Source: a virus (lineage: Duplodnaviria; Heunggongvirae; Uroviricota; Caudoviricetes). Taken from it: a stretch of 18,446 nt of DNA. The stretch is taken from the IMG/VR virus record IMGVR_UViG_2526164613_000015. One strand, written 5' to 3'. Below are positions 1,833 to 15,188 of the stretch, piece after piece. The first letter of the stretch is position 1. Every line of letters begins with the position of its first letter. The notes beneath the pieces are model-generated. The model was not told the origin of the DNA, did no database searches, and saw nothing but the letters and a program-made list of their open reading frames with translations. The translations under genes were made by a program, and so were the position numbers.

Positions 1833-2939
1833 TCAAACAATCTGGAAAATATTTCTTGGATTTGTAATAGGTCTGTTGATGGAGAACAACTCACGAATTA
1901 AATCTTGGCTCAAGCCAGTTTTCATAAGAATTCTTAGCCAGGTTGCATCATCCAGCATTTCAATCGCCTCGGCCAGCATGCCGGGTTCTTCAGGGCGCAA
2001 AAGTTCATCACCAGGTTCAACTCTCGTATACCCTCTGGAATTAAGATGCATATAGCCAGTTCTTGCCTGTTCCTGGGTCAATAAGCCTAATGCGCTGGCT
2101 CGATAAATACACATTTTAAGGCTGATTTTCCATCTAAGTTTAAATTCAACCAGAGCATTCCAGTCGAATTGCTTACCTCGTATTCGTGGAAATTCTTTAA
2201 TGAAAGATAACCTGGGAACTAATAAGGCGCTCGAAAAGTGATCGGCTTGTGATTCCGTAAGTTTATCACCTGTCGTTATGCCCTCATGCATTACTAAATG
2301 CCCTAATTCATGACCTAAATCAGAGCGAAATCTACATATGCTTTTTTTAACATTGTTCCTGATGATAACAGGCCTGTTATTGTGAACAGTAAAAGCATCA
2401 ACACGATCATCGACTCCCGTAACATGCGCAACGATTACCCCTAAACTCTCCGCCAATTTAACCATTGATGATATAGGGCCAAGACCTAAATTCCAGGCAC
2501 GGCGACAATCTTCTGCCACTCGCTCAATATCATTCGGAGTAAGTAATTCAGCCCCTGGGTGCTCCGGTATGTTAACGTCAGGAAATTCGATTTCACCTTC
2601 AACAGCAGAAATTATAATATTAAGAATCTCAGCCCTGGCCAATACACTATTAGTCAGCGTTTGAGTCCTGGACTTCTTACTCCGAAAATGGCAGACATCA
2701 CTTTCCAGAGCGTATTTTCGTTCAGTAAAAAGAAAACTGGACTTAATCATAAGCGCTGAAGATATTAACTCAAGACATTGCTCCGATGGCCTGCACCCCT
2801 TCTCCAGTTTGCTAACAAATTGCTTTGTCTTGCCAATTTTTTCGGCTAACTCTTCACAAGAAAGCCCAACAGCCATTCTCGCTAGTTTGAGCTTATCACC
2901 CCGATACTCAGTGAAGTTATTCACCTGATGTTCCATCAC
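1833..2939 (-). CDS. fused XRE-type HTH / ImmA-IrrE family zinc metallopeptidase (COG2856-like), 368 aa
   Basis: N-terminal HTH (LARMAVGLSCEELAEKIGKTKQFVSKLEKG); HEXXH zinc-binding motif in SDLGHELGHLVMHEG; start is GTG at 2939 or ATG at 2936; overlaps upstream ORF by about 20 nt. Confidence 0.8.
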   Translation of the reverse strand: MMEHQVNNFTEYRGDKLKLARMAVGLSCEELAEKIGKTKQFVSKLEKGCRPSEQCLELISSALMIKSSFLFTERKYALESDVCHFRSKKSRTQTLTNSVLARAEILNIIISAVEGEIEFPDVNIPEHPGAELLTPNDIERVAEDCRRAWNLGLGPISSMVKLAESLGVIVAHVTGVDDRVDAFTVHNNRPVIIRNNVKKSICRFRSDLGHELGHLVMHEGITTGDKLTESQADHFSSALLVPRLSFIKEFPRIRGKQFDWNALVEFKLRWKISLKMCIYRASALGLLTQEQARTGYMHLNSRGYTRVEPGDELLRPEEPGMLAEAIEMLDDATWLRILMKTGLSQDLIRELFSINRPITNPRNIFQIV

Positions 2940-3567
2940 TGCTCACATCCAAATCTTTATCCTTCGTACGCCGACGAAGAGGCACCTTATTAATCTCCGC
3001 TTCGTCAGGGAGTGTGTTATAATCAAGAGGCATAAGCGGCATCGATGCTGTAGATTGATGAGAAACTATACTAATCTGAGCACCATAAGTATTAAATCCA
3101 ACAAGAGCTACCTCCCAACGAGGCAGTGTGGACTCTAATTCACCATCGCCCTCTTCGGATAAAAAAGGCTCAGCTATGACTCGCCATGTAATATCTTGCT
3201 CAGCCTCAACATCACCAAACAATGAGAGCTGCTCATACTCTACTTTATTTCGACGCAGACGATGTTTCTTTTTGGGGTTATTAATGCAATCTTTGGTAAA
3301 TTGTAGCGGAACTTTATTTAAAGCAACTACATAGTCCAACCCCTTGGAAATCATCTCAAGGCCAGGAATTGCATCTTCATTTTGAATAAGATGATTTCTG
3401 ACCCAATCATAAGCCCTTACACCTTCAGACCAGTTGCTGTCTAATGCGTGCTTATGATAGTACAGCTGCTCAAGTACGTTAGCGATCTCCGCCAACAAGT
3501 GGCGAACATAGTTTTCAGCAAGATAAGGTTGAAATTCCCAACAAGGAGCTAACTGATTTTCATTCAT
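2917..3567 (-). CDS. hypothetical acidic protein (216 aa), first gene of a two-gene operon with the HTH-ImmA peptidase
   Basis: ATG at 3567; no TM segments; acidic stretches (GDVEAEQD, SEEGDGELES); stop overlaps start of 1833..2939; preceded by promoter-like sequence with perfect TTGACA. Confidence 0.6.
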   Translation of the reverse strand: MNENQLAPCWEFQPYLAENYVRHLLAEIANVLEQLYYHKHALDSNWSEGVRAYDWVRNHLIQNEDAIPGLEMISKGLDYVVALNKVPLQFTKDCINNPKKKHRLRRNKVEYEQLSLFGDVEAEQDITWRVIAEPFLSEEGDGELESTLPRWEVALVGFNTYGAQISIVSHQSTASMPLMPLDYNTLPDEAEINKVPLRRRTKDKDLDVSSDGTSGE

Positions 3568-3732: not shown

Positions 3733-3888
3733 TTACTCCTCAGGTTCGTAAGCTGTGAAGACAGCGACCTCCGTCTGGCCGGTTCGGATTCGTACCTCGC
3801 AGAGGTCTTTCCTCGTTACCAGTGCCGTCACTATGACGGTTAAACAGATGACGATCAGGGCGATTAACATCGCCTTTTGCTGCTTCAT
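3733..3888 (-). CDS. hokD: Hok/Gef family type I toxin (51 aa), HokD/RelF-like
   Basis: Manual translation of minus strand gives MKQQKAMLIALIVICLTVIVTALVTRKDLCEVRIRTGQTEVAVFTAYEPEE, matching HokD/RelF as recalled; single TM helix plus conserved C-terminal Cys region. Below the 60-aa ORF-track cutoff. Confidence 0.85.
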   Translation of the reverse strand: MKQQKAMLIALIVICLTVIVTALVTRKDLCEVRIRTGQTEVAVFTAYEPEE

Positions 3889-4099
3889 AGCCTGCTTCTC
3901 CTTGACCTTTTGGTCCGTAAGAGGCTAATCTCTATGTGTCGCATAGATATGGCCTCAGATTAATGTTAAGCGTCTTGCAGGACGCGTAATGTTAACTGGG
4001 GCTTTTCTCTATCTGCCTTTTGGTGTTCATGCCTGAGGCAGATAGCCTCAAGCACCCGCAGCAATTCTACTTAACTCCCGTCACCTCGCCAATATAAAA

Positions 4100-4189
4100 T
4101 CAATCAGAAAGGCGATCCATAAGAACAATAGCAAGACAATAAATTGCCACTACAGCCGCAATAGCCAGCGCGCATTTGAGAACCAGCAC
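4100..4189 (-). CDS. candidate small hydrophobic peptide (29 aa)
   Basis: GTG at 4189..4187 preceded by AGGAGG at 5-nt spacing; translation MLVLKCALAIAAVVAIYCLAIVLMDRLSD is a single predicted TM helix; about 70 nt downstream of the SIR2-like gene stop. Confidence 0.3.
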   Translation of the reverse strand: MLVLKCALAIAAVVAIYCLAIVLMDRLSD

Positions 4190-4259
4190 GATAACCTCCT
4201 GTATTGGACGTACACCAGCTCTGATAAATATGAGGCTGCCTCTTTAACTTCGCATTGCG

Positions 4260-5291
4260 CTACCAATCAATAAAATCAGTGATGTTATCCAACCTAATTA
4301 CAGTAACTTCCCGTCTCAACTGGTTTTTCCAATATATCTCACGAGCGTTTTGTTCACCAGCACCGCTCCACTCAATTACTCTTAAAGGCTTAGAGGTTAG
4401 GTAAGGTCGAATAAGCAGGTTAAGGTGAATATCGAGACCAGAGTAACCAAACAATATTATTTCTTCTGATTCAAATAATGCAAACTGCAAATAATCCCAG
4501 TACGTAGAAAGAACATTAGATGCTGCTATAACTGACGGTTTTCTTTTTATATGAGTTAACACTATATGCTCACTAGGTTCATCTATGTCAAGAGTAAGTT
4601 GTGAGCGTGAAAGTTTTAAAACATTTTCATGCTGATTAATAAATAGTGGTGAACCATGCAAGTGCAAATAATAACCAAACCTACGATTGTATTTCCGTTC
4701 GAGCGCTGCAGAGGAAAATCCGTGGCTTAGCATCCCATCAACTAAAACCCCATCATACCCGTTGAATATATCATTATCTATGAATGAATTGTATAATAAT
4801 TTGTCATAGTTTAATGTCGCGATATGTGAGTGTGTGTTCTTTACAAACTCCACAAGCGCATTTTCGAATCTTTGTGGCAAACCTTTATCGTAATTATGCA
4901 ACCTGGTTGCAACTTTGTGAATATAAGTGGCGGTAATTTTGGGGAAGTTTAGTCCATCTTCAGTAAGCCAATGCACGTTCCCCTCTCCAATTTGAGCAAG
5001 AGCTTTACAATATGTGACAGCCTGGTGAAGGGTATCCAACTCATGTTCTCCTTCTGGTGGACCTTGCCGCTGAAGACAACGCTCGATAAGTTGCTTGTGG
5101 ATATCTTTTAAAAAATTGGGGCGATGCCAAATTTCTTCCAACGCTCTGTCTAAGGAGAAGTGAGCAGGATCTAAAGCCATACCGAGACCGTTGCCGAATA
5201 TTATTAATTTTCTTGCCATATAGGGGGACTCATATTGGAATAACGCTGGATAGCGTAGCGCGATACGCTTAAGTTTAGGATTAATAGACAT
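4260..5291 (-). CDS. SIR2-like (sirtuin-fold, SIR2_2/DUF4020-type) putative NADase, 343 aa, stand-alone
   Basis: Ordered motifs LIIFGNGLGMA (Gly-rich loop), ATLNYDKLL, YLHLHGS, ILFGYSGLD as in defence-associated SIR2 domains; gene and 370-bp upstream region are markedly AT-rich. Confidence 0.8.
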   Translation of the reverse strand: MSINPKLKRIALRYPALFQYESPYMARKLIIFGNGLGMALDPAHFSLDRALEEIWHRPNFLKDIHKQLIERCLQRQGPPEGEHELDTLHQAVTYCKALAQIGEGNVHWLTEDGLNFPKITATYIHKVATRLHNYDKGLPQRFENALVEFVKNTHSHIATLNYDKLLYNSFIDNDIFNGYDGVLVDGMLSHGFSSAALERKYNRRFGYYLHLHGSPLFINQHENVLKLSRSQLTLDIDEPSEHIVLTHIKRKPSVIAASNVLSTYWDYLQFALFESEEIILFGYSGLDIHLNLLIRPYLTSKPLRVIEWSGAGEQNAREIYWKNQLRREVTVIRLDNITDFIDW

Positions 5292-7073: not shown

Positions 7074-7575
7074 AATTCCATCCAGCTTTTTGTTGGTATT
7101 GCTGTCGATACGCAAGTTTGAAAGCAATTGCTTTTTCTATAAGTTCGTCAGTTTCACGATCCACTACGGCAGGATCAGCAAAAAGCAGTCCGGACTCCAC
7201 CACATCGCCATATTCTTTGTTTAACCCGGCGATCATGTACGTGATGCTTTTTCCGTCACTAATTTCACGATACAACCTGAAATCATTAATCCGGATAGCC
7301 TCCATAATTGCAGGCACTAGCGCCGTGAACTTTTCACGCTTATCCCTAGTGTCGATAGCCTTCCAGCGTTCGAATATCTTCACTCGATTAACGCCAAGCG
7401 CTCGCTGATCAACCGCGCCACCTTCATCTGTGACACGCTGAACCTCGATGTTCGGGCGCTCTTTCAAAGCCCAGAATGCTTCAGTGATTAATATCGTCGC
7501 CTGCTCCTGTGTCATTCCTGGTCGACATATCCAGGCATCCAGAGCCTCACGAGCCTGTTCAGGAGTGATTTTCAT
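7054..7575 (-). CDS. hypothetical early-region protein (173 aa) at the CII/YdaT position downstream of the cro-like gene
   Basis: ATG at 7575; overlaps the cro-like stop by 17 nt and the initiator start by about 20 nt, indicating an operon; family not securely recognised. Confidence 0.55.
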   Translation of the reverse strand: MKITPEQAREALDAWICRPGMTQEQATILITEAFWALKERPNIEVQRVTDEGGAVDQRALGVNRVKIFERWKAIDTRDKREKFTALVPAIMEAIRINDFRLYREISDGKSITYMIAGLNKEYGDVVESGLLFADPAVVDRETDELIEKAIAFKLAYRQQYQQKAGWNYEPSFC

Positions 7576-7786
7576 TGTTCAACCGCCCCGCCCGCTTCGT
7601 CTTACGATATTCGTCATAAACCTTGGGATCATACTGAAGCTCGCCGCCAGATGCCTCCTGTAGACGCATCGCGCGACCTTCAGGAACCAGCTCTTGCCAT
7701 TGAGAAACAGCAGATGGGTCAACGCCAGCAGCTTTCGCTACTTTAGCTTTCGTACCGTAAAAATTAATTACGTCTGATTTAAACAT
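7559..7786 (-). CDS. dicC: Cro-like regulator, DicC/YdaS-like (75 aa)
   Basis: ATG at 7786 with GGAGG 4 nt upstream; sequence ...VPEGRAMRLQEASGGELQYDPKVYDEYRKTKRAG resembles DicC as recalled; divergent from the repressor gene. Confidence 0.7.
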   Translation of the reverse strand: MFKSDVINFYGTKAKVAKAAGVDPSAVSQWQELVPEGRAMRLQEASGGELQYDPKVYDEYRKTKRAGRLNNENHS

Positions 7787-7798
7787 CGCACCTCCAAT

Positions 7799-7814
7799 AT
7801 TGAGTTTTCTCAAT
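7799..7814. promoter_or_regulatory. candidate operator in the dicA/dicC-like divergent promoter region
   Basis: Perfect palindrome ATTGAG-TTTT-CTCAAT, with CTCAAGGAATCTCAAG half-site repeats at 7822-7837, in the 77-bp intergenic region. Confidence 0.45.
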
Positions 7815-7863
7815 GCTAATCACTCAAGGAATCTCAAGCCAAGGGTTATTAAGATATCTAAAT

Positions 7864-8271
7864 ATGAACGAGAAAACTTTAGGTCAACGCATTAGAGAAA
7901 GACGTAAGCAGGTAGGCTTAAGTCAAAACGGTTTAAGCAAAGCTGCTGGCGTATCTGGCTCATCAATTTCATTATGGGAAAGTGACCATACAGCCCCGCG
8001 CGGGCAAAATTTGCATCGCCTCGCCGAGGTATTGCAATGTTCACCAACCTGGATACTGTTTGGCGACGAGGACAAAACACCAGCTCCCCCTGTTTCACTC
8101 GATAGTGCCTTAGACTTATCGGAAGATGAGTTAGAGATGTTGCGTTTGTATCGCGCACTTCCTAAATCAGAGCAACAAGCACAACTCAGCGAACTCCGCG
8201 CCCGCGTTGAGAATTTTAATCGCCTGTTCACCGAGCTATTAGAGGCTCGCAAACGCAACAAGCATCAATAA
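7864..8271 (+). CDS. dicA: CI-type prophage repressor, DicA-like XRE HTH protein (135 aa)
   Basis: HTH LGQRIRERRKQVGLSQNGLSKAAGVSGSSISLWES; motifs VLQCSPTWILFGDEDK and RARVENFNRLF resemble DicA as recalled; ATG at 7864 gives DicA-like length (ORF track starts at 7813). Confidence 0.8.
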   Translation: MNEKTLGQRIRERRKQVGLSQNGLSKAAGVSGSSISLWESDHTAPRGQNLHRLAEVLQCSPTWILFGDEDKTPAPPVSLDSALDLSEDELEMLRLYRALPKSEQQAQLSELRARVENFNRLFTELLEARKRNKHQ

Positions 8272-8463
8272 TCATCCCTTCACAAAATTTTAAAGCCTTA
8301 CATTTCAATGTATTGGCTTTATCTTGCGTCAATACTTGAGTTTTATCATCAAAAAACCTTAACGAAAAACAATGAGAAAACTAAATTACCTCCATCAAGA
8401 CACCGCACGGTGTTCTCAGCAAACAGTTCCGCTACCCCGGCGTTAAGGGGAAATGAGGTCAAC

Positions 8464-8616
8464 ATGGATACTATCGATCTTGGCAACAACGAATCTCTGG
8501 TATGCGGCGTGTTTCCCAACCAAGACGGCACGTTCACCGCGATGACGTATACCAAAAGCAAAACGTTTAAAACCGAATCTGGCGCGCGTCGCTGGTTAGC
8601 AAGAAACTCTGACTAA
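8464..8616 (+). CDS. ydfA: small protein (50 aa), YdfA-like first gene of the dicB operon
   Basis: ATG at 8464 with GAGG 5 nt upstream; ...TAMTYTKSKTFKTESGARRWLARNSD; position downstream of dicA-like gene matches K-12 ydfA. Confidence 0.5.
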   Translation: MDTIDLGNNESLVCGVFPNQDGTFTAMTYTKSKTFKTESGARRWLARNSD

Positions 8617-8729
8617 TGAAATCTGGTAATTAAGGAATCCTCCACGGGGGGGAGTGGTGCACACGCGCCGGACACAAGCAAGCATCCGGCATGCTCTTTA
8701 ACAATCTGGATATCCATAACAGTAAAAAT

Positions 8730-9221
8730 CTACAGATTGCCGTTCAGTTTTCTGGCCAACTCTTCAAGAGATGGAGGCGATACGTAATCCGGATTTTTAT
8801 TCATAAGAAACTGATTTTCACAGTACAGGCACCTGCTTTTATGAAAAAATTCACATTCTCTAACCGGGAATAGCTGAAGTATCGATACTATCTTTTGTCC
8901 AAAACATTTTGGACAAAGATGCATGATTATGCTGCCGCCGTTCACGGTTACCTCCTTCGAGTACACAAAAGTTCCCGACTCAAGTTGGCTAAGGATATAA
9001 CCTTCCGTCTGAGCCTCAAAGTTTTCAAATTCTGCAATTTTAGCTTTGAGAGAAGCATTTATTTCTTGATAAGTGCCCACCAGCTCAACGAGAGACACGC
9101 ATTCGCGCTGAATAGATGCAAGCTTTGAGTTCAGTTCACCAATAGCCGCATTTACTTCAGCTTGAGTTTTTGCCTCGTTCATTAGTTTTGCAATCTGGGC
9201 GGTTTCACGAATAGCCGTCAT
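8730..9221 (-). CDS. hypothetical coiled-coil plus C4 zinc-ribbon protein (about 163 aa), antisense within the dicB-operon interval
   Basis: Predicted N-terminal helical/coiled-coil region and C-terminal CPKC...CLYC pair; start uncertain (ATG 9221 preferred; ORF track extends to 9479 through a repeat-rich region); convergent with dicA/ydfA. Confidence 0.45.
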   Translation of the reverse strand: MTAIRETAQIAKLMNEAKTQAEVNAAIGELNSKLASIQRECVSLVELVGTYQEINASLKAKIAEFENFEAQTEGYILSQLESGTFVYSKEVTVNGGSIIMHLCPKCFGQKIVSILQLFPVRECEFFHKSRCLYCENQFLMNKNPDYVSPPSLEELARKLNGNL

Positions 9222-9559
9222 TGCTGCCGTTAATTCAGCGATCACATTCAATACTCTTATTGTTGTTGGGAATATCCAGATTAACAAGATCCTTGTTGTT
9301 GGGGAATAACGGGGACCACCTCGCCTGACGTGGTAAAAAGCAGGCACACAACACGAAAGCACACGGCGAGGTTGCTGGTTCATAGATAGCCTATCGTTAA
9401 ATTTTCGTCGACCGTGCGCTTCCGGTTGTGGCAATCCGCGAAATGGCGCGGCGGTAAGTATGGCTGGGGTTTCCTCCATTGCTCCAGAAAATGCACCGGG
9501 TTGTCAGGTTGACCATACGCTTAAGTGACAACCCCGCTACAACGCCCTCTGTTATCAAT

Positions 9560-9612
9560 TTTCTGGTGACATTTGGCGGTATCAGTTTTACTCCGTGACT
9601 GCTCTGCCGCCC
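9560..9612 (+). ncRNA. dicF: DicF-like small RNA
   Basis: TTTCTGGTGACATTTGGCGGTATCAGTTTTACTCCGTGACTGCTCTGCCGCCC followed by TTTTT matches K-12 DicF as recalled with about one mismatch; lies immediately upstream of the dicB-like gene. Confidence 0.65.
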
Positions 9613-9786
9613 TTTTTAAAGTGAATTTTGTGATGCGGTGAATGCGGCTAAGCGCACGCGGAACAGTTAAAACCAAAAACAGTGTTATGGGTGGATTCTC
9701 TGTATCCGGCGTTAATTGTTAACTGGTTAACGTCACCTGGAGGCACCAGGCACTGCATCACAAAATTCATTGTTGAGGACGCGATA

Positions 9787-9975
9787 ATGGAAACGTTATT
9801 ACCAAACGTTAATACGTCTGAAGGTTGTTTTGATATTGGTGTTCTGCTCAGTAATAAAGCGTTTACTGAGGATGCCATTAATATGCGGAAATATGAGCCT
9901 TATCTGCTCAATGATAATTCCATACTTTCCCGAATTGCTCTTCTTGAACTTGGTATTTTCGGAGAACAGCAGTGA
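9787..9975 (+). CDS. dicB: DicB-like cell-division inhibitor (62 aa)
   Basis: METLLPNVNTSEGCFDIGVLLSNKAFTEDAINMRK... closely resembles the DicB N-terminus as recalled; GAGGA Shine-Dalgarno 7 nt upstream of the ATG. Confidence 0.75.
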   Translation: METLLPNVNTSEGCFDIGVLLSNKAFTEDAINMRKYEPYLLNDNSILSRIALLELGIFGEQQ

Positions 9976-10160
9976 CCTCAGCATTTGCACTGGTGATGAC
10001 CGTTTTTCTTATAACGGGTGAGCCGCAGAATGTAATTACCGGAATTTATGACAGTAAGTCATCCTGCATTCAGGTAAGGGACGAACAAAAAATCCCCGGT
10101 GAATGCCTCCCGTTAAAAAAAGTGTCGCTGAACCTGAATAACGAAATACCGGCTGGATAA
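9972..10160 (+). CDS. ydfD: YdfD-like small protein with N-terminal hydrophobic segment (62 aa)
   Basis: GTG start overlapping the dicB stop (GTGA), GGAGA Shine-Dalgarno 6 nt upstream; N-terminal TM-like segment AFALVMTVFLI; synteny with K-12 ydfD. Confidence 0.55.
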   Translation: MTSAFALVMTVFLITGEPQNVITGIYDSKSSCIQVRDEQKIPGECLPLKKVSLNLNNEIPAG

Positions 10161-10252
10161 CCCTCCAGCCATATTAACGCCATACCAACGGATTAAAAAT
10201 ACCAGCAATGGCAGGAATTTGTTCATCCTTAAAATGGTTATGAGGTTTATCA

Positions 10253-12670
10253 ATGAACGCTGATAAAGAAGAAATTGCACTATATTACGAAGCCAAAAAT
10301 GACAAAGTCAGAAAACGCCTTGGGATTAAAGGTGGTTTTTACTGGCGCACAGCAAAAAAATTATCGGTTGCAATATCACGCGGTGTTGCTGCAATGGACG
10401 ATGCCGGATTTGACGAAGAGGATTTTAAAAAACCCATCCGCGTCCATTTACCCGTTGTGAATGACCTTCCACCGGAAGGTGTGTTTGATACTGAATTCTG
10501 CAACCGATACGAAAAAGGCGGAGAAGATGGTATCACAATGATACTTATCGCGCCCTCTGTTCCGGACAAACCAGCCAGTACTGACAATACCAACGTCAAC
10601 GGCGAAGACATGGCTAAGATTGAGGAGAATATGCTTCTTCCGGTTTCAGGTCAGATTCTGCCTGTTCGCTGGCTGGCGCAACACAACAGCGAAAAACCGG
10701 TCACGCACGTTTCACTGGACAAACTGCGCGCATTACATAACGCACAGGATGAAAAACTTCCCGCCGTTACCGCGCTGGCCATCTCAAATAAAGCAGTGCA
10801 ACTCGAACCGCTGGAGATTCGGGATTTGTACAAACTGGAGCGAGACACTGACAAAGTTTTCCCCGCCCCCGTAAATTCGGACCTGGGACTGATGACCTCT
10901 TTTATCGAAGCATACCTGGGCGCTGACTACACCGATCGCGGTCTGCTTACAAAAGAGTGGATGAAAGGAAATAGTGTTTCACGCATCAGCCGCACGCCAT
11001 CCGGCGCTAACGCTGGCGGCGGCATTCTTACCGATCGCGGCGAAGGTTTTGTCCACGATGATGCGTCAGTGGCGCGTGACGTAGCCACTGGCGTACTGGC
11101 CCGTTCAATGGACGTGGATATTTATAACCTTCATCCCGCACACGCTAAACGCATTGAGGAAATTATCGCTGAAAATAAACCGCCATTTACTGTGTTTTTC
11201 AGCAAATTCATCACCATGCCGGGCCACAAGGATTACTCCCGCGCCATCGTGGTTGCGTCCGTGAAAGAAGCACCAATTGGTATAGAGGCTACTCCCCACC
11301 GTGTCACCGAATACCTGAATAAGGTGCTGACTGAAACCGATCATGCCACCCCTGATCCGGAAATCGTGGATATTGCCTGTGGCCGCTCCTCTGCCCCGAT
11401 GCCGCAGCGTGTAACAAAAGAAGGAAAACAGGATGATGAAGAAAAACCGCAGCCATCTGGCGCAATGGCAGATGAACAGGCAACGACTGAAGCAGTGGAA
11501 CCGGATACAACTGAACATAATCAGGACACGCAGTCGATGGATGCTCAGCCACAGATAAATTCTGTTGATGCGAAATATCAGAAACTGCGTGCAGAACTCC
11601 ATGAAGCCAAGAAAAACATTCCACCCAAAAATCCTGTCGATGCAGATAAATTACTGGCTGCTTCTCGCGGAGAATTTGTTGAAGGGATTAGCGACCCGAA
11701 TGATCCAAAATGGGTGAAGGGGATCCAGAGTCGCGATGATGATGACCAGAATCAGGATAAAGCGGAACAAAACAGCCCAAATGCGTTACAAAACGAGCCA
11801 AAAACAAAACAACCAGAACCAGTAGTGCAACAAGAACCAGAAAAAGTTTGCACCACATGTGGTCAGACCGGTGGCGGCAACTGTCCTGACTGTAGTGCGG
11901 TGATGGGGAACGCAACCTACCAGGAAACATTCGATGAAGAGAATCAGGCTGAAGCTCAGAAAAATGATCCGGAGGAAATGGAAGGCACTGAACATCTGCA
12001 CAAGGAGAACACTGGCAGCGATCAGTATCACGCCAGCGATAATAAAACTGGCGAAACAGCAAATCCCTTAATTAAAGTGAACGGTCATCATGAAATCTCA
12101 TCCACCAGCAGGTTGTGGCACCATCTGATGATTGACCTTGAAGCAATGGGAAAAAATCCTGATGCGCCAATAAACGCTATAGCCGGTAAGTTTTTTGATC
12201 CGGCAACCGGAGATATGGGGCCAGAATTCAGCAAAACTATCGATCTGGAAACCGCAGGCGGGGTCATCGATCGGGACACCATTAAGTGGTGGCTGAAACA
12301 GTCACGCGAAGCACAATCCTCCATTCTGACCGATGAAATCCCGTTGGATGATGCACTGCTGCAATTACGGGAATTTATCGACGAAAACTCCGGTGAATTT
12401 TTTGTTCAGGTCTGGGGTAACGGTGCAACTTTCGACAACGTGATTTTACGCCGTTCATATGAACGGCAGGGGATCCCCTGCCCGTGGCGTTACACCAATG
12501 ATCGCGATGTAAGAACGATGGTTGCTCTGGGACTGGTGATGGATTTCGACGCAAGAACGACTATTCCATTCGAAGGTGAACGCCATAACGCCCTGCACGA
12601 TGCGCGTTACCAGGCAAAATACGTTTCAGCCATCTGGCAAAAACTGATCCCGAGTCAGGCTGATTTTTAA
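10253..12670 (+). CDS. RecE/YdfE-like protein (805 aa) with C-terminal DnaQ-like DEDDh 3'-5' exonuclease domain
   Basis: C-terminal Exo motifs MIDLEAMG (D-x-E), [26 protein letters not shown] (H-x4-D); central acidic low-complexity region with zinc-ribbon-like [15 protein letters not shown]; GAGG Shine-Dalgarno; sits where lambda exo / Rac recE map. Confidence 0.8.
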
Positions 12671-14465: not shown

Positions 14466-15107
14466 TTAATTTTTTAAAACGAAGTTACCTCTGTCAGGGT
14501 CAAAAGCACAATTATCTCTTCCTACAATCATTGAAACTGCGATTGACTCCCTGCTCAAAGGATGAGCCGCCCTTGTTTTAACAAGATGTATTAATGCCAT
14601 TTTATCATACAACATACAAACATTTGAATTCATTGAATTCCTCATAAATACCCCATCTTCTGGTTCACATAATGTAACAGGGCATGTTCGTAAGCTCTCT
14701 GGCACTTGCAATTGTGCATGCTCCACATTAAATGCACATACTTCAATTTTATCTAACAACTCCTCTAACTGGTAGTTAGAAAGCAAATCCATATTTTCGA
14801 GCATCTCAATTTCACGCAGTACTGTAACTTCACGGCTTGTCAAACTACCATGATTAAGTGTACGTTCAATATGTTCTATATATTGAAGGCCAATCTGGAT
14901 ATTATCATTCGATAAACCATCCTGGTTAAGACTTCCCATAAAATATCCATTTACCTGCATAGGTCGTATTGACACCATCAACTCACCCAGTCTTATTTGA
15001 GCTTCTCCACGAATAGTCTGATTACGTATCTCAGACAAGGTTTCTTGAGGAATGTCAGACAAAAAACTAACCCCAGGTAAAATATAAGGCGTTAAATCTA
15101 CAGGCAT
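14466..15107 (-). CDS. nleG: NleG family type III secreted effector (U-box E3 ubiquitin ligase), 213 aa
   Basis: MP N-terminus; conserved C-terminal U-box region CPVTL...GVFMRNS...HPLSRESI...FD...GNFV shared with three downstream paralogs; AT-rich. Confidence 0.8.
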   Translation of the reverse strand: MPVDLTPYILPGVSFLSDIPQETLSEIRNQTIRGEAQIRLGELMVSIRPMQVNGYFMGSLNQDGLSNDNIQIGLQYIEHIERTLNHGSLTSREVTVLREIEMLENMDLLSNYQLEELLDKIEVCAFNVEHAQLQVPESLRTCPVTLCEPEDGVFMRNSMNSNVCMLYDKMALIHLVKTRAAHPLSRESIAVSMIVGRDNCAFDPDRGNFVLKN

Positions 15108-15188
15108 TCCTCTCCCTCCATTTTAATAACTTAATTTTGCTTTAGTAAAAAATAAAAGTACATAAAACTATATTTATATCATTAATTA

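Follow-up and report, generated by a model that had tools for sequence, protein, structure and literature searches.

Rip1 ('ring interacting pore 1') is a single-protein abortive-infection defence, sensor and effector in one, reported by Patel et al. 2026 (Nature 651:1060) as summarised in section 5 of a review (PMC13434031), and the account in a conference report agrees with that summary (PMC12908700). According to the same section of the review, the Rip1 gene of a Pseudomonas aeruginosa prophage sits between the terminase genes and its product alone is not toxic (PMC13434031), and superinfection of cells carrying Rip1 leads to rounding late in infection (PMC13434031; PMC12908700). Escape mutations are summarised there as mapping to the portal protein in Pseudomonas phages and to the small terminase in E. 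coli phages, and cryo-electron microscopy (cryo-EM) as placing 12 Rip1 copies around an 11-mer small-terminase ring (PMC13434031); the structure of the Rip1 of phage HK446 was made with the small terminase of T6 (PMC13434031; PMC12908700; PDB 9oox). The pore is described in that section as formed by N-terminal amphipathic helices together with a ring-contacting C-terminal half, dye as leaking from liposomes with Rip1 complexes, and homologues as widely carried by proteobacterial prophages (PMC13434031), while a passage of PMC13601566 counts Rip1 among the small-terminase sensors. The gene described here lies in an 18,446-nucleotide (nt) stretch of DNA, IMG/VR virus record IMGVR_UViG_2526164613_000015 (Caudoviricetes), which at its full length is termed the window and is identical in sequence to ~2.107-2.125 Mb of E. 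coli O55:H7 strain DEC5B (NZ_CP038389.1), reverse-complemented. The window represents the early region of a lambdoid prophage, and this gene, referred to below as the rip1-like gene, probably encodes a trigger-activated, pore-forming abortive-infection defence of the Rip1 family, borne on a self-contained cassette.

The window protein and HK446 Rip1 (HK446_037; PDB 9oox) display full-length homology, common membership of phrog_1244 and a similar size (171 and 164 amino acids, respectively). Both comprise N-terminal helices and a C-terminal four-cysteine β-domain, and the predicted fold of the window protein matches 9oox. Each is the product of a single prophage-borne gene with no partner, opposed to the surrounding operon, and HK446 rip1, like the window gene, is antisense in the early-left operon by the immunity region. 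In contrast with HK446 rip1, the window gene starts with GTG rather than ATG, occupies the ydfA-DicF interval of a Qin-like, dicA/dicB-type early region rather than the N-cIII interval, and encodes an additional C-terminal tail of ~15 residues (PPSLEELARKLNGNL). Identity to the Rip1 proteins of HK446 and of the Pseudomonas Casadabanvirus phages (JBD30 gp30, DMS3, D3112 orf25) is only 27-29%, and the trigger specificity is therefore probably different from that of the known Rip1s.

HkaP of phages HK620 and HK630 is a further phrog_1244 member, with 31% identity to the window protein, the same antisense slot and a nearly identical upstream element of ~40 nt, although its mid-leader repeats differ (ACCCCTACAG twice, versus CCCCAACAACAA twice in the window); it carries merely the annotation 'putative superinfection exclusion protein'. 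HK620 hkaP and HK446 rip1 fill the slot of P22 sieB, close to N (gene 24 in P22) and antisense within the early-left operon. The rip1-like gene resembles sieB (P22, lambda; Pfam PF14163) in its proposed logic of lysogen-expressed abortive exclusion, in being opposed to the early-left operon and in having a homologous promoter and leader. The proteins, in contrast, are unrelated: no BLASTP alignment was obtained at E <= 100, and P22 SieB matches PF14163 at 4e-29 whereas the window protein does not. No sign of an Esc-like internal product was found in the rip1-like gene. Another parallel is provided by Tab/Atab of Pseudomonas phage JBD26, a small prophage moron with a late-acting defence against virion morphogenesis that shares the hotspot of the Pseudomonas Rip1 homologues, between the genes for the small terminase and the large terminase (PMC10884400). 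Tab differs in being an unrelated protein of 83 amino acids that acts on the tape-measure protein and prevents assembly of the tail, in having an anti-Tab partner and in being co-directional with the late operon (PMC10884400).

Gene call, family assignment and protein architecture

The conserved gene and its ribosome-binding site are as follows.

8730..9245, minus strand: rip1-like gene, 171 amino acids, GTG start (open reading frame, ORF; RefSeq WP_000559926.1, 'hypothetical protein'; conserved start)
9254..9258, minus strand: Shine-Dalgarno sequence AAGAG, 8 nt 5' of the GTG (from the sequence; A(A/T)GAG at the same site in most of 18 aligned loci)

The stop codon, TAG, occupies 8730-8732. 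The initial annotation had reported a minus-strand ORF ending at 8730, located between a YdfA-like gene and DicF/dicB and convergent with them, an arrangement confirmed by the ORF list, Pfam, Rfam and the existing annotation; its coordinates of 8730-9479, its length of ~163 amino acids and its two candidate starts, 9221 and 9479, were replaced by those given above. The interval 8730-9479 is merely the maximal ORF (249 amino acids), and the ATG at 9221 is codon 9 of the 171-residue protein. A start of the form GTG-ATC/ATA-GCT-GAA (here GTG followed by ATCGCTGAA) is found in 15 of 16 enterobacterial loci, with ATG in one and TTG in one; an in-frame stop lies 0-3 codons 5' of this position in five enterobacterial loci, and MIAEL opens every homologous protein. 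Both the 249-residue reading (start 9479) and the 163-residue reading (start 9221) were ruled out by the conservation of the GTG at 9245 and by the in-frame stops 5' of it in other genera.

The relationship to Rip1 was revealed by profile, structure and pairwise comparisons. A profile of 20 homologues searched against all PDB sequences gave one significant match, chain L of 9oox, Rip1 of phage HK446 (E 1.3e-15), spanning residues 6-152 of the query and 16-160 of the 164 residues of the chain. When the predicted fold was used as query in Foldseek, 9oox was the sole match (E 2.4e-7; template modelling (TM) score 0.71). Pairwise BLASTP comparisons gave 27% identity to HK446 Rip1 (E 3e-12), 29% to JBD30 gp30 (E 7e-19) and 31% to HK620 HkaP (E 4e-20), and a translated search of phage genomes recovered, as full-length relatives with ~30% identity, HK620 hkaP, HK630 HkaP and proteins of Pseudomonas Mu-like phages (JBD30, DMS3, D3112). 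In PHROGs the protein is taken in by phrog_1244 (E 1e-56), labelled 'unknown function', a group common to the window protein, HK446 Rip1, JBD30 gp30 and HkaP (E 1e-51 to 1e-61). The match to 9oox, the common phrog_1244 and the predicted fold thus make membership of the Rip1 family well supported on grounds of sequence and modelling, with a confidence above that for function, and the protein is a divergent member. It had initially been described as impossible to assign to a family; a solved, named relative (PDB 9oox) and a PHROG are now at hand.

Other resources gave no family. None was returned by Pfam or NCBIfam, and the only match in PADLOC-DB 2.0 (2023), a library older than the description of Rip1, was at chance level (E 0.035, 9 bits). 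Weak coiled-coil matches (TMF_TATA_bd, MobC and others) were set aside as compositional. The Pfam zf-RING_7 model (CT398 / DUF164-type coiled-coil plus C4 zinc-ribbon proteins) was not matched, and neither were the DNA- or RNA-binding zinc-ribbon families of Pfam. Two defence proteins considered as candidates, the ATPase-domain protein GiPD474 (Gifsy-prophage defence) and Tab of JBD26, with its 83 residues, were rejected as dissimilar.

The AlphaFold2 model, built from a 20-sequence alignment with a mean predicted local distance difference test score (pLDDT) of 88, comprises helices at residues 2-24 and 28-79 followed by a β-rich C-terminal half. The C-terminal β-domain displays two cysteine pairs, CPKC (C111, C114) and CLYC (C139, C142), and all four cysteines are invariant in every aligned homologue, including HK446 Rip1, HkaP and JBD30 gp30. 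The helical N-terminus and the CPKC...CLYC C-terminal half noted in the initial annotation are thus borne out by the model and by the homologue alignments. The N-terminal helices are amphipathic, with a hydrophobic moment of 0.40-0.44 for residues 7-30 and 31-54, and no transmembrane segment or signal peptide was identified in the protein (maximum Kyte-Doolittle 19-residue mean 1.13).

Two perfectly complementary 11-bp arms, 2 nt apart (TTTGTCCAAAA CA TTTTGGACAAA), form an inverted repeat at 8894-8917, inside the coding sequence and across the CPKCFGQ codons. It may be a coincidence of codons and is not expected in relatives with another protein sequence at this position, e.g. CPQCYAKR.

The rip1-like gene is under purifying selection, presenting a ratio of non-synonymous to synonymous substitution rates (dN/dS) of 0.20 against the 93%-identical allele of E. 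coli ECOR29 and of 0.26 against the Salmonella copy. A profile search of 1.84 billion cluster representatives returned 2,195 at E <= 1e-3 and 562 at E <= 1e-10, nearly all of 145-175 amino acids and matching end to end. Because of these dN/dS values and of the 2,195 homologous representatives, the ORF is not a product of chance.

The cassette, its distribution and its orientation

Gene order in the window runs from the Q antiterminator through accessory genes, replication genes, a YdaT/Cro-like pair, the DicA-like repressor and the YdfA-like DUF1391 gene to the rip1-like gene on the minus strand, and continues with DicF, dicB, a ydfD-like gene, exonuclease, integrase and NleG-type effector genes. 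The features that frame the rip1-like gene are listed below.

7813-8271, plus strand: DicA-like repressor
8464-8616, plus strand: DUF1391 gene similar to ydfA, belonging to the dicB-type early-left operon and convergent with the rip1-like gene (Pfam PF07151, E 4e-30; annotation)
8673..8696, no strand assigned: Qin-type hairpin GCCGGACACAAGCAAGCATCCGGC at the downstream edge of the cassette, without a U-run on the gene strand (sequence and junction alignment)
8693..9353, minus strand: mobile cassette of 661 bp with one gene, comprising promoter/leader, gene and 3' motif (BLAST and junction alignments)
9561-9612, plus strand: DicF small RNA of the early-left operon, 3' of the cassette (Rfam RF00039, 77 bits)
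9788-9975, plus strand: dicB cell-division inhibitor gene (annotation; ORF)

The limits of the cassette were defined by BLAST of window positions 7501-10300 against ECOR29 (locus L005), phage PhiR49_1 (L006) and K-12 Qin (L008), together with junction alignments. Positions 8693-9353 match ECOR29 and PhiR49_1 at 93% and are not found in K-12 Qin. ECOR29 and PhiR49_1 represent prophages of a different type, in which the cassette is flanked by a LexA-like cI gene on one side and yfdP on the other. The flanks, in contrast, are those of Qin (8393-8609, 8626-8689 and 9336-9881, at 77-93%), and Qin has 42 unrelated nt in place of the ~650-bp cassette (window ~8693-9350). The pair ydfB and ydfC (Qin locus L008, 2155-2567), where the initial annotation had placed the gene, is indeed absent from the window, at a point ~75 bp from the cassette site, but the Qin alignment does not present a precise replacement. 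The Qin-like flanks, the 42 unrelated nt of Qin and the absence of ydfB/ydfC ~75 bp away therefore identify the cassette as an insertion of a mobile single-gene unit, with the loss of ydfB/ydfC a separate difference and no neat swap. A search for a deletion scar of the cassette ends in K-12 Qin was negative, with an alignment score of 2.0, below the mean of 3.5 for 1,000 shuffles. The cassette is thus carried by some and lacked by other, otherwise homologous genomes, with clean junctions and with flanks 92-93% identical to K-12 Qin, in the manner of a moron. In the sense of Juhala et al. 2000, a moron is an added gene that brings its own promoter and terminator; the promoter is here predicted from homology to that of P22 sieB. 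A canonical terminator (AAGCGTCC..GGGCGCTTTTTT) follows the cassette in ECOR29, in Salmonella and in Cronobacter, but not in this window.

The gene is present in 654 of 5,426 complete E. coli genomes, always on the chromosome and in one to three copies, and many O157:H7 strains carry it at 99% identity. Intact full-length copies occur in at least 16 genera, among them Salmonella, Citrobacter, Cronobacter, Enterobacter, Kluyvera, Kosakonia, Buttiauxella, Edwardsiella, Trabulsiella, Scandinavium and Symbiopectobacterium. The copies in two insect-symbiont genomes are truncated behind an intact leader, to 13 codons in Symbiopectobacterium purcellii (L018, 4001 onward) and to 42 codons in Serratia symbiotica (L031, 4001 onward). 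Such truncations, taken with the 'hypothetical protein' label, the GTG start, the weak promoter and the lack of a terminator in this context, would agree with a decaying or non-functional ORF, left in a defective prophage as a by-product of mosaic recombination. Against this stand the dN/dS of 0.20-0.26, the intact copies in at least 16 genera, the four invariant cysteines, the confident AlphaFold2 model and the homology to a protein with a solved functional complex, and decay is an extremely improbable explanation.

At every enterobacterial locus examined, the gene is opposed to the early operon and lies beside the immunity genes. In HK446, HK620 and HK630 it is found between N and cIII; in O157:H7 it follows a DUF1391 gene and precedes a truncated exonuclease gene, excisionase and integrase; in Cronobacter it lies before kilR; and in Citrobacter, Scandinavium, Edwardsiella, Enterobacter and others it is opposite DicA-like and exonuclease genes. 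Besides Cronobacter and Salmonella, six other genera display this single-gene arrangement antisense to early operons. In Salmonella (L010, Logan SRR8995899 contig, 4001-4516) the cassette, with 68% protein identity, lies just 3' of cro and is opposed to the early-right (replication) operon, not the early-left. The gene of JBD30 is opposed to the late operon, between the terminase genes. No co-oriented partner gene was found in the window or in the HK446, HK620, ECOR29, O157:H7, Cronobacter and Salmonella loci. The recurrent opposed orientation fits a gene that is on in the lysogen while the surrounding operon is silent, and it suggests that the gene may be damped by read-through from that operon when the prophage itself grows lytically.

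In the window, a transcript of the early-left operon must cross the rip1-like gene in antisense to reach DicF. The main role of the cassette might be regulatory, the convergent unit itself, or its product acting as a nucleic-acid-binding zinc-ribbon protein, damping read-through into DicF/DicB and keeping the division inhibitor silent in the lysogen. The same cassette, however, occurs in prophages with no dicF or dicB nearby (ECOR29/PhiR49_1, Salmonella, HK446, HK620, JBD30), and its conserved function is therefore not tied to DicF/DicB. Moreover, antisense transcription alone would not need a protein kept under purifying selection, and no nucleic-acid-binding zinc-ribbon family of Pfam is matched. 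Regulation as the main role of the cassette is highly improbable, whereas a side effect on DicF/DicB is possible.

Promoter, leader and flanking repeats

The cassette carries, 5' of the gene, a leader that is related to that of P22 sieB. The elements recognised in it, and the arm of an inverted repeat that follows the gene, are listed here.

9316..9345, minus strand: upstream element GCCTGCTTTTTACCACGTCAGGCGAGGTGG, GCCTGyyTTTTnnCCACnTCAGGCnnGGTGG, at ~-45 to -74 from the predicted start (leader alignments)
9271..9306, minus strand: predicted promoter, with -35 TTCCCC at 9306..9301, a 17-nt spacer and -10 TAATCT at 9283..9278 (homology to the annotated P22 sieB promoter)
9260-9304, minus strand: two direct repeats, CCCCAACAACAA at 9304..9293 and CCCAACAACAA at 9270..9260 (leader alignments)
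9257..9282, no strand assigned: upstream arm of an inverted repeat, with the near-palindrome CTGGATATTCC, overlapping the -10 and the predicted transcript start
8703..8728, no strand assigned: downstream arm of the inverted repeat, gene strand GGATATCCAGATTGTTAAAGAGC, just after the stop codon

Conservation of the promoter/leader (9246-9353, minus strand; ~105 nt 5' of the start codon) extends much further than that of the coding sequence. The upstream element is nearly identical 5' of HK620 hkaP and HK446 rip1, although the proteins are only ~30% identical to the window protein, and in a DNA search it aligned at 85% over 40 nt with P22 29650-29690, immediately 5' of the annotated sieB promoter. 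The P22 annotation (NC_002371.2) places this promoter at 29690-29720 and the sieB RNA start at 29727, and the leader alignment continues as far as that transcript start. The predicted promoter is a weak sigma-70 match in which TAnnnT is kept, and transcription would, from the alignment, begin near 9271-9273. The leader recurs in Shigella phage SfIV (86% over 92 nt; L033 1801-1892), there ahead of the gene for the unrelated 144-residue protein SfIVp36 (phrog_5286). The promoter module is therefore common to at least three unrelated kinds of cargo: sieB, the rip1 family and phrog_5286. Use of this module makes phrog_5286 a candidate defence gene. The initial annotation had proposed a convergent cargo gene by the immunity region, resembling exclusion morons of the rexAB/sieB type, and the Rip1 family, the sieB-like slot and the sieB-homologous promoter all agree with that proposal.

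The paired direct repeats co-vary by lineage, being CCCCAACAACAA twice in E. coli and Salmonella, CCCCA(A/T)TCACCA twice in Cronobacter and ACCCCTACAG twice in HK620, HK446 and P22. Of the P22 pair, the first overlaps the -35 region, and the second has its first nucleotide at the mapped start of the sieB RNA. Two arms of a 26-nt inverted repeat, 77% complementary and with a near-palindromic core (TGGATATCCA), bracket the gene. The versions of HK620 and HK446 lack the inverted repeat, which is kept in the cassettes of E. coli, Salmonella and Cronobacter; its arms could serve as paired operators, or form a long-range stem in the antisense (early-left) transcript.

The leader was also considered as a structured RNA. 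None of the 13 pairs given by RNAalifold showed a compensatory change, the covariation term being +0.29, and Rfam gave no match; because of the lack of compensatory changes and of an Rfam match, the leader is not called a structured RNA. An H-type pseudoknot (GCCTG/CAGGC and CCAC/GTGG), first seen by eye, was without support from covariation. Binding of CsrA or Hfq at the CA-rich repeats was dropped, as the motifs are missing from the HK620 and P22 versions.

Proposed mode of action and neighbouring genes

As proposed here, the DicA-like repressor would shut the early-left operon in the lysogen, and its own weak sieB-type promoter would supply small amounts of the Rip1-like protein, which would be harmless alone. 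When another phage reached the late stage of infection, the C-terminal four-cysteine domain would bind ring oligomers of that phage, which are the small terminase in coliphages and the portal in Pseudomonas phages. About 12 Rip1 copies would then gather round the ring, and their N-terminal amphipathic helices would open a pore in the inner membrane, leading to cell death or lysis ahead of finished progeny, i.e. to abortive infection. Induction of the resident prophage would direct strong antisense transcription over the rip1-like gene and its conserved leader, which could switch Rip1 off in the prophage's own lytic growth. In P22, the antisense RNA sas reportedly spares the phage from SieB suicide in this way (Ranade and Poteete 1993, Genes Dev). 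P22 sas is also mentioned in PMC5415839.

Several points weigh against this interpretation. Identity to the solved Rip1 is merely 27%, and neither PADLOC-DB 2.0 (2023) nor NCBIfam contains a Rip1-family model, which leaves the assignment with no independent curated call. A consensus promoter scan gave nothing above threshold at 9271..9306, making the promoter weak by consensus, and a terminator scan found none 3' of the gene in this window. Expression of the gene is predicted from its sequence alone, and the mechanism of Rip1 (Patel et al. 2026) is given second-hand, after a review, the report of a meeting and the title of a PDB entry. We infer that a member with 27% identity has the same activity, and likewise its trigger protein, promoter and transcript start; the antisense self-protection step is pure inference on our part. 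Finally, JBD30 gp30, a full-length homologue of the window protein, is listed as a moron that 'blocks phage genome injection' (Tsao et al. 2018, via PMC11445458 and its Appendix Table S1).

The last of these listings, together with the superinfection-exclusion annotation of HK620 hkaP, would suit a protein that acts at entry, stopping the injection of incoming phage DNA with no late pore. The window protein, in contrast, has no signal peptide or transmembrane segment, which would be unusual for an injection blocker, and later work, as summarised in the review section and the conference report, includes portal and small-terminase escape mutations, the cryo-EM complex 9oox and late cell rounding (PMC13434031; PMC12908700). 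Exclusion at entry is weakened by the lack of a membrane segment and by this later structural work, and is highly improbable; a late-acting Rip1-type pore is the preferred explanation.

It is conceivable, if rather unlikely, that the ~105-nt leader, more conserved than any of its cargoes, serves as a portable 'lysogen-on, lytic-off' switch, giving low constitutive expression of an exclusion gene in the lysogen and early-left antisense silencing on induction, so that the prophage escapes its own defence. Silencing of the cargo could proceed via a sas-like RNA or via a long-range stem formed by the flanking inverted repeats of the gene. Were the leader such a switch, the collision of transcripts at this locus would also couple Rip1 expression inversely to that of DicF/DicB, and the module could serve as a sequence tag in looking for new single-gene defences, phrog_5286 being the candidate to begin with.

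The locus is no new kind of system; it adds one more member to the Rip1 family, which was described in 2026, and knowledge of how Rip1 works is unchanged by it. What is specific here is the corrected start codon, the 660-bp cassette, the sieB-type promoter module and the placement directly 5' of DicF/DicB. The initial annotation had allowed that the gene might prove to be a common conserved one of known function: it is a common prophage gene (654 of 5,426 genomes) whose function has now been described, but that function is close to the exclusion role first guessed. For a gene found in ~12% of the complete genomes of E. coli, those of the O55:H7 and O157:H7 lineage among them, the label 'hypothetical protein' gives way to a specific, testable function, with relevance for phage susceptibility and hence for phage typing, phage therapy and biocontrol of these pathogens. 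The reuse of the sieB promoter before unrelated cargos provides a small practical lead to further single-gene defences.

Further genes of defence type were identified elsewhere in the window. A Rosmer pair was recognised by PADLOC at 1833-3567 on the minus strand (RmrA, 368 amino acids, E 6e-105; RmrT, 216 amino acids, E 5e-25), labelled 'helix-turn-helix domain-containing protein' and 'hypothetical protein' in RefSeq. The hokD toxin gene (RefSeq) lies at 3733-4057 on the minus strand, with the sok antitoxin RNA at 3886-4057 (Rfam RF01794, 107.5 bits). A stand-alone SIR2-family protein is encoded at 4260-5291 on the minus strand (4260-5219 with the RefSeq start) and presents weak PADLOC matches to Aga_SIR2 (4e-6) and PDC-S21 (8e-6); located between the replication genes and hok/sok, it is possibly a further defence gene. 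The Rip1-like cassette, the Rosmer pair, the SIR2-family gene and hok/sok thus make up a compact multi-defence element. Just past the integrase/attachment end, four NleG/DUF1076-type type III secretion effector genes extend over 14466-17485 on the minus strand, and a copy of IS2 follows them at the right end of the window.

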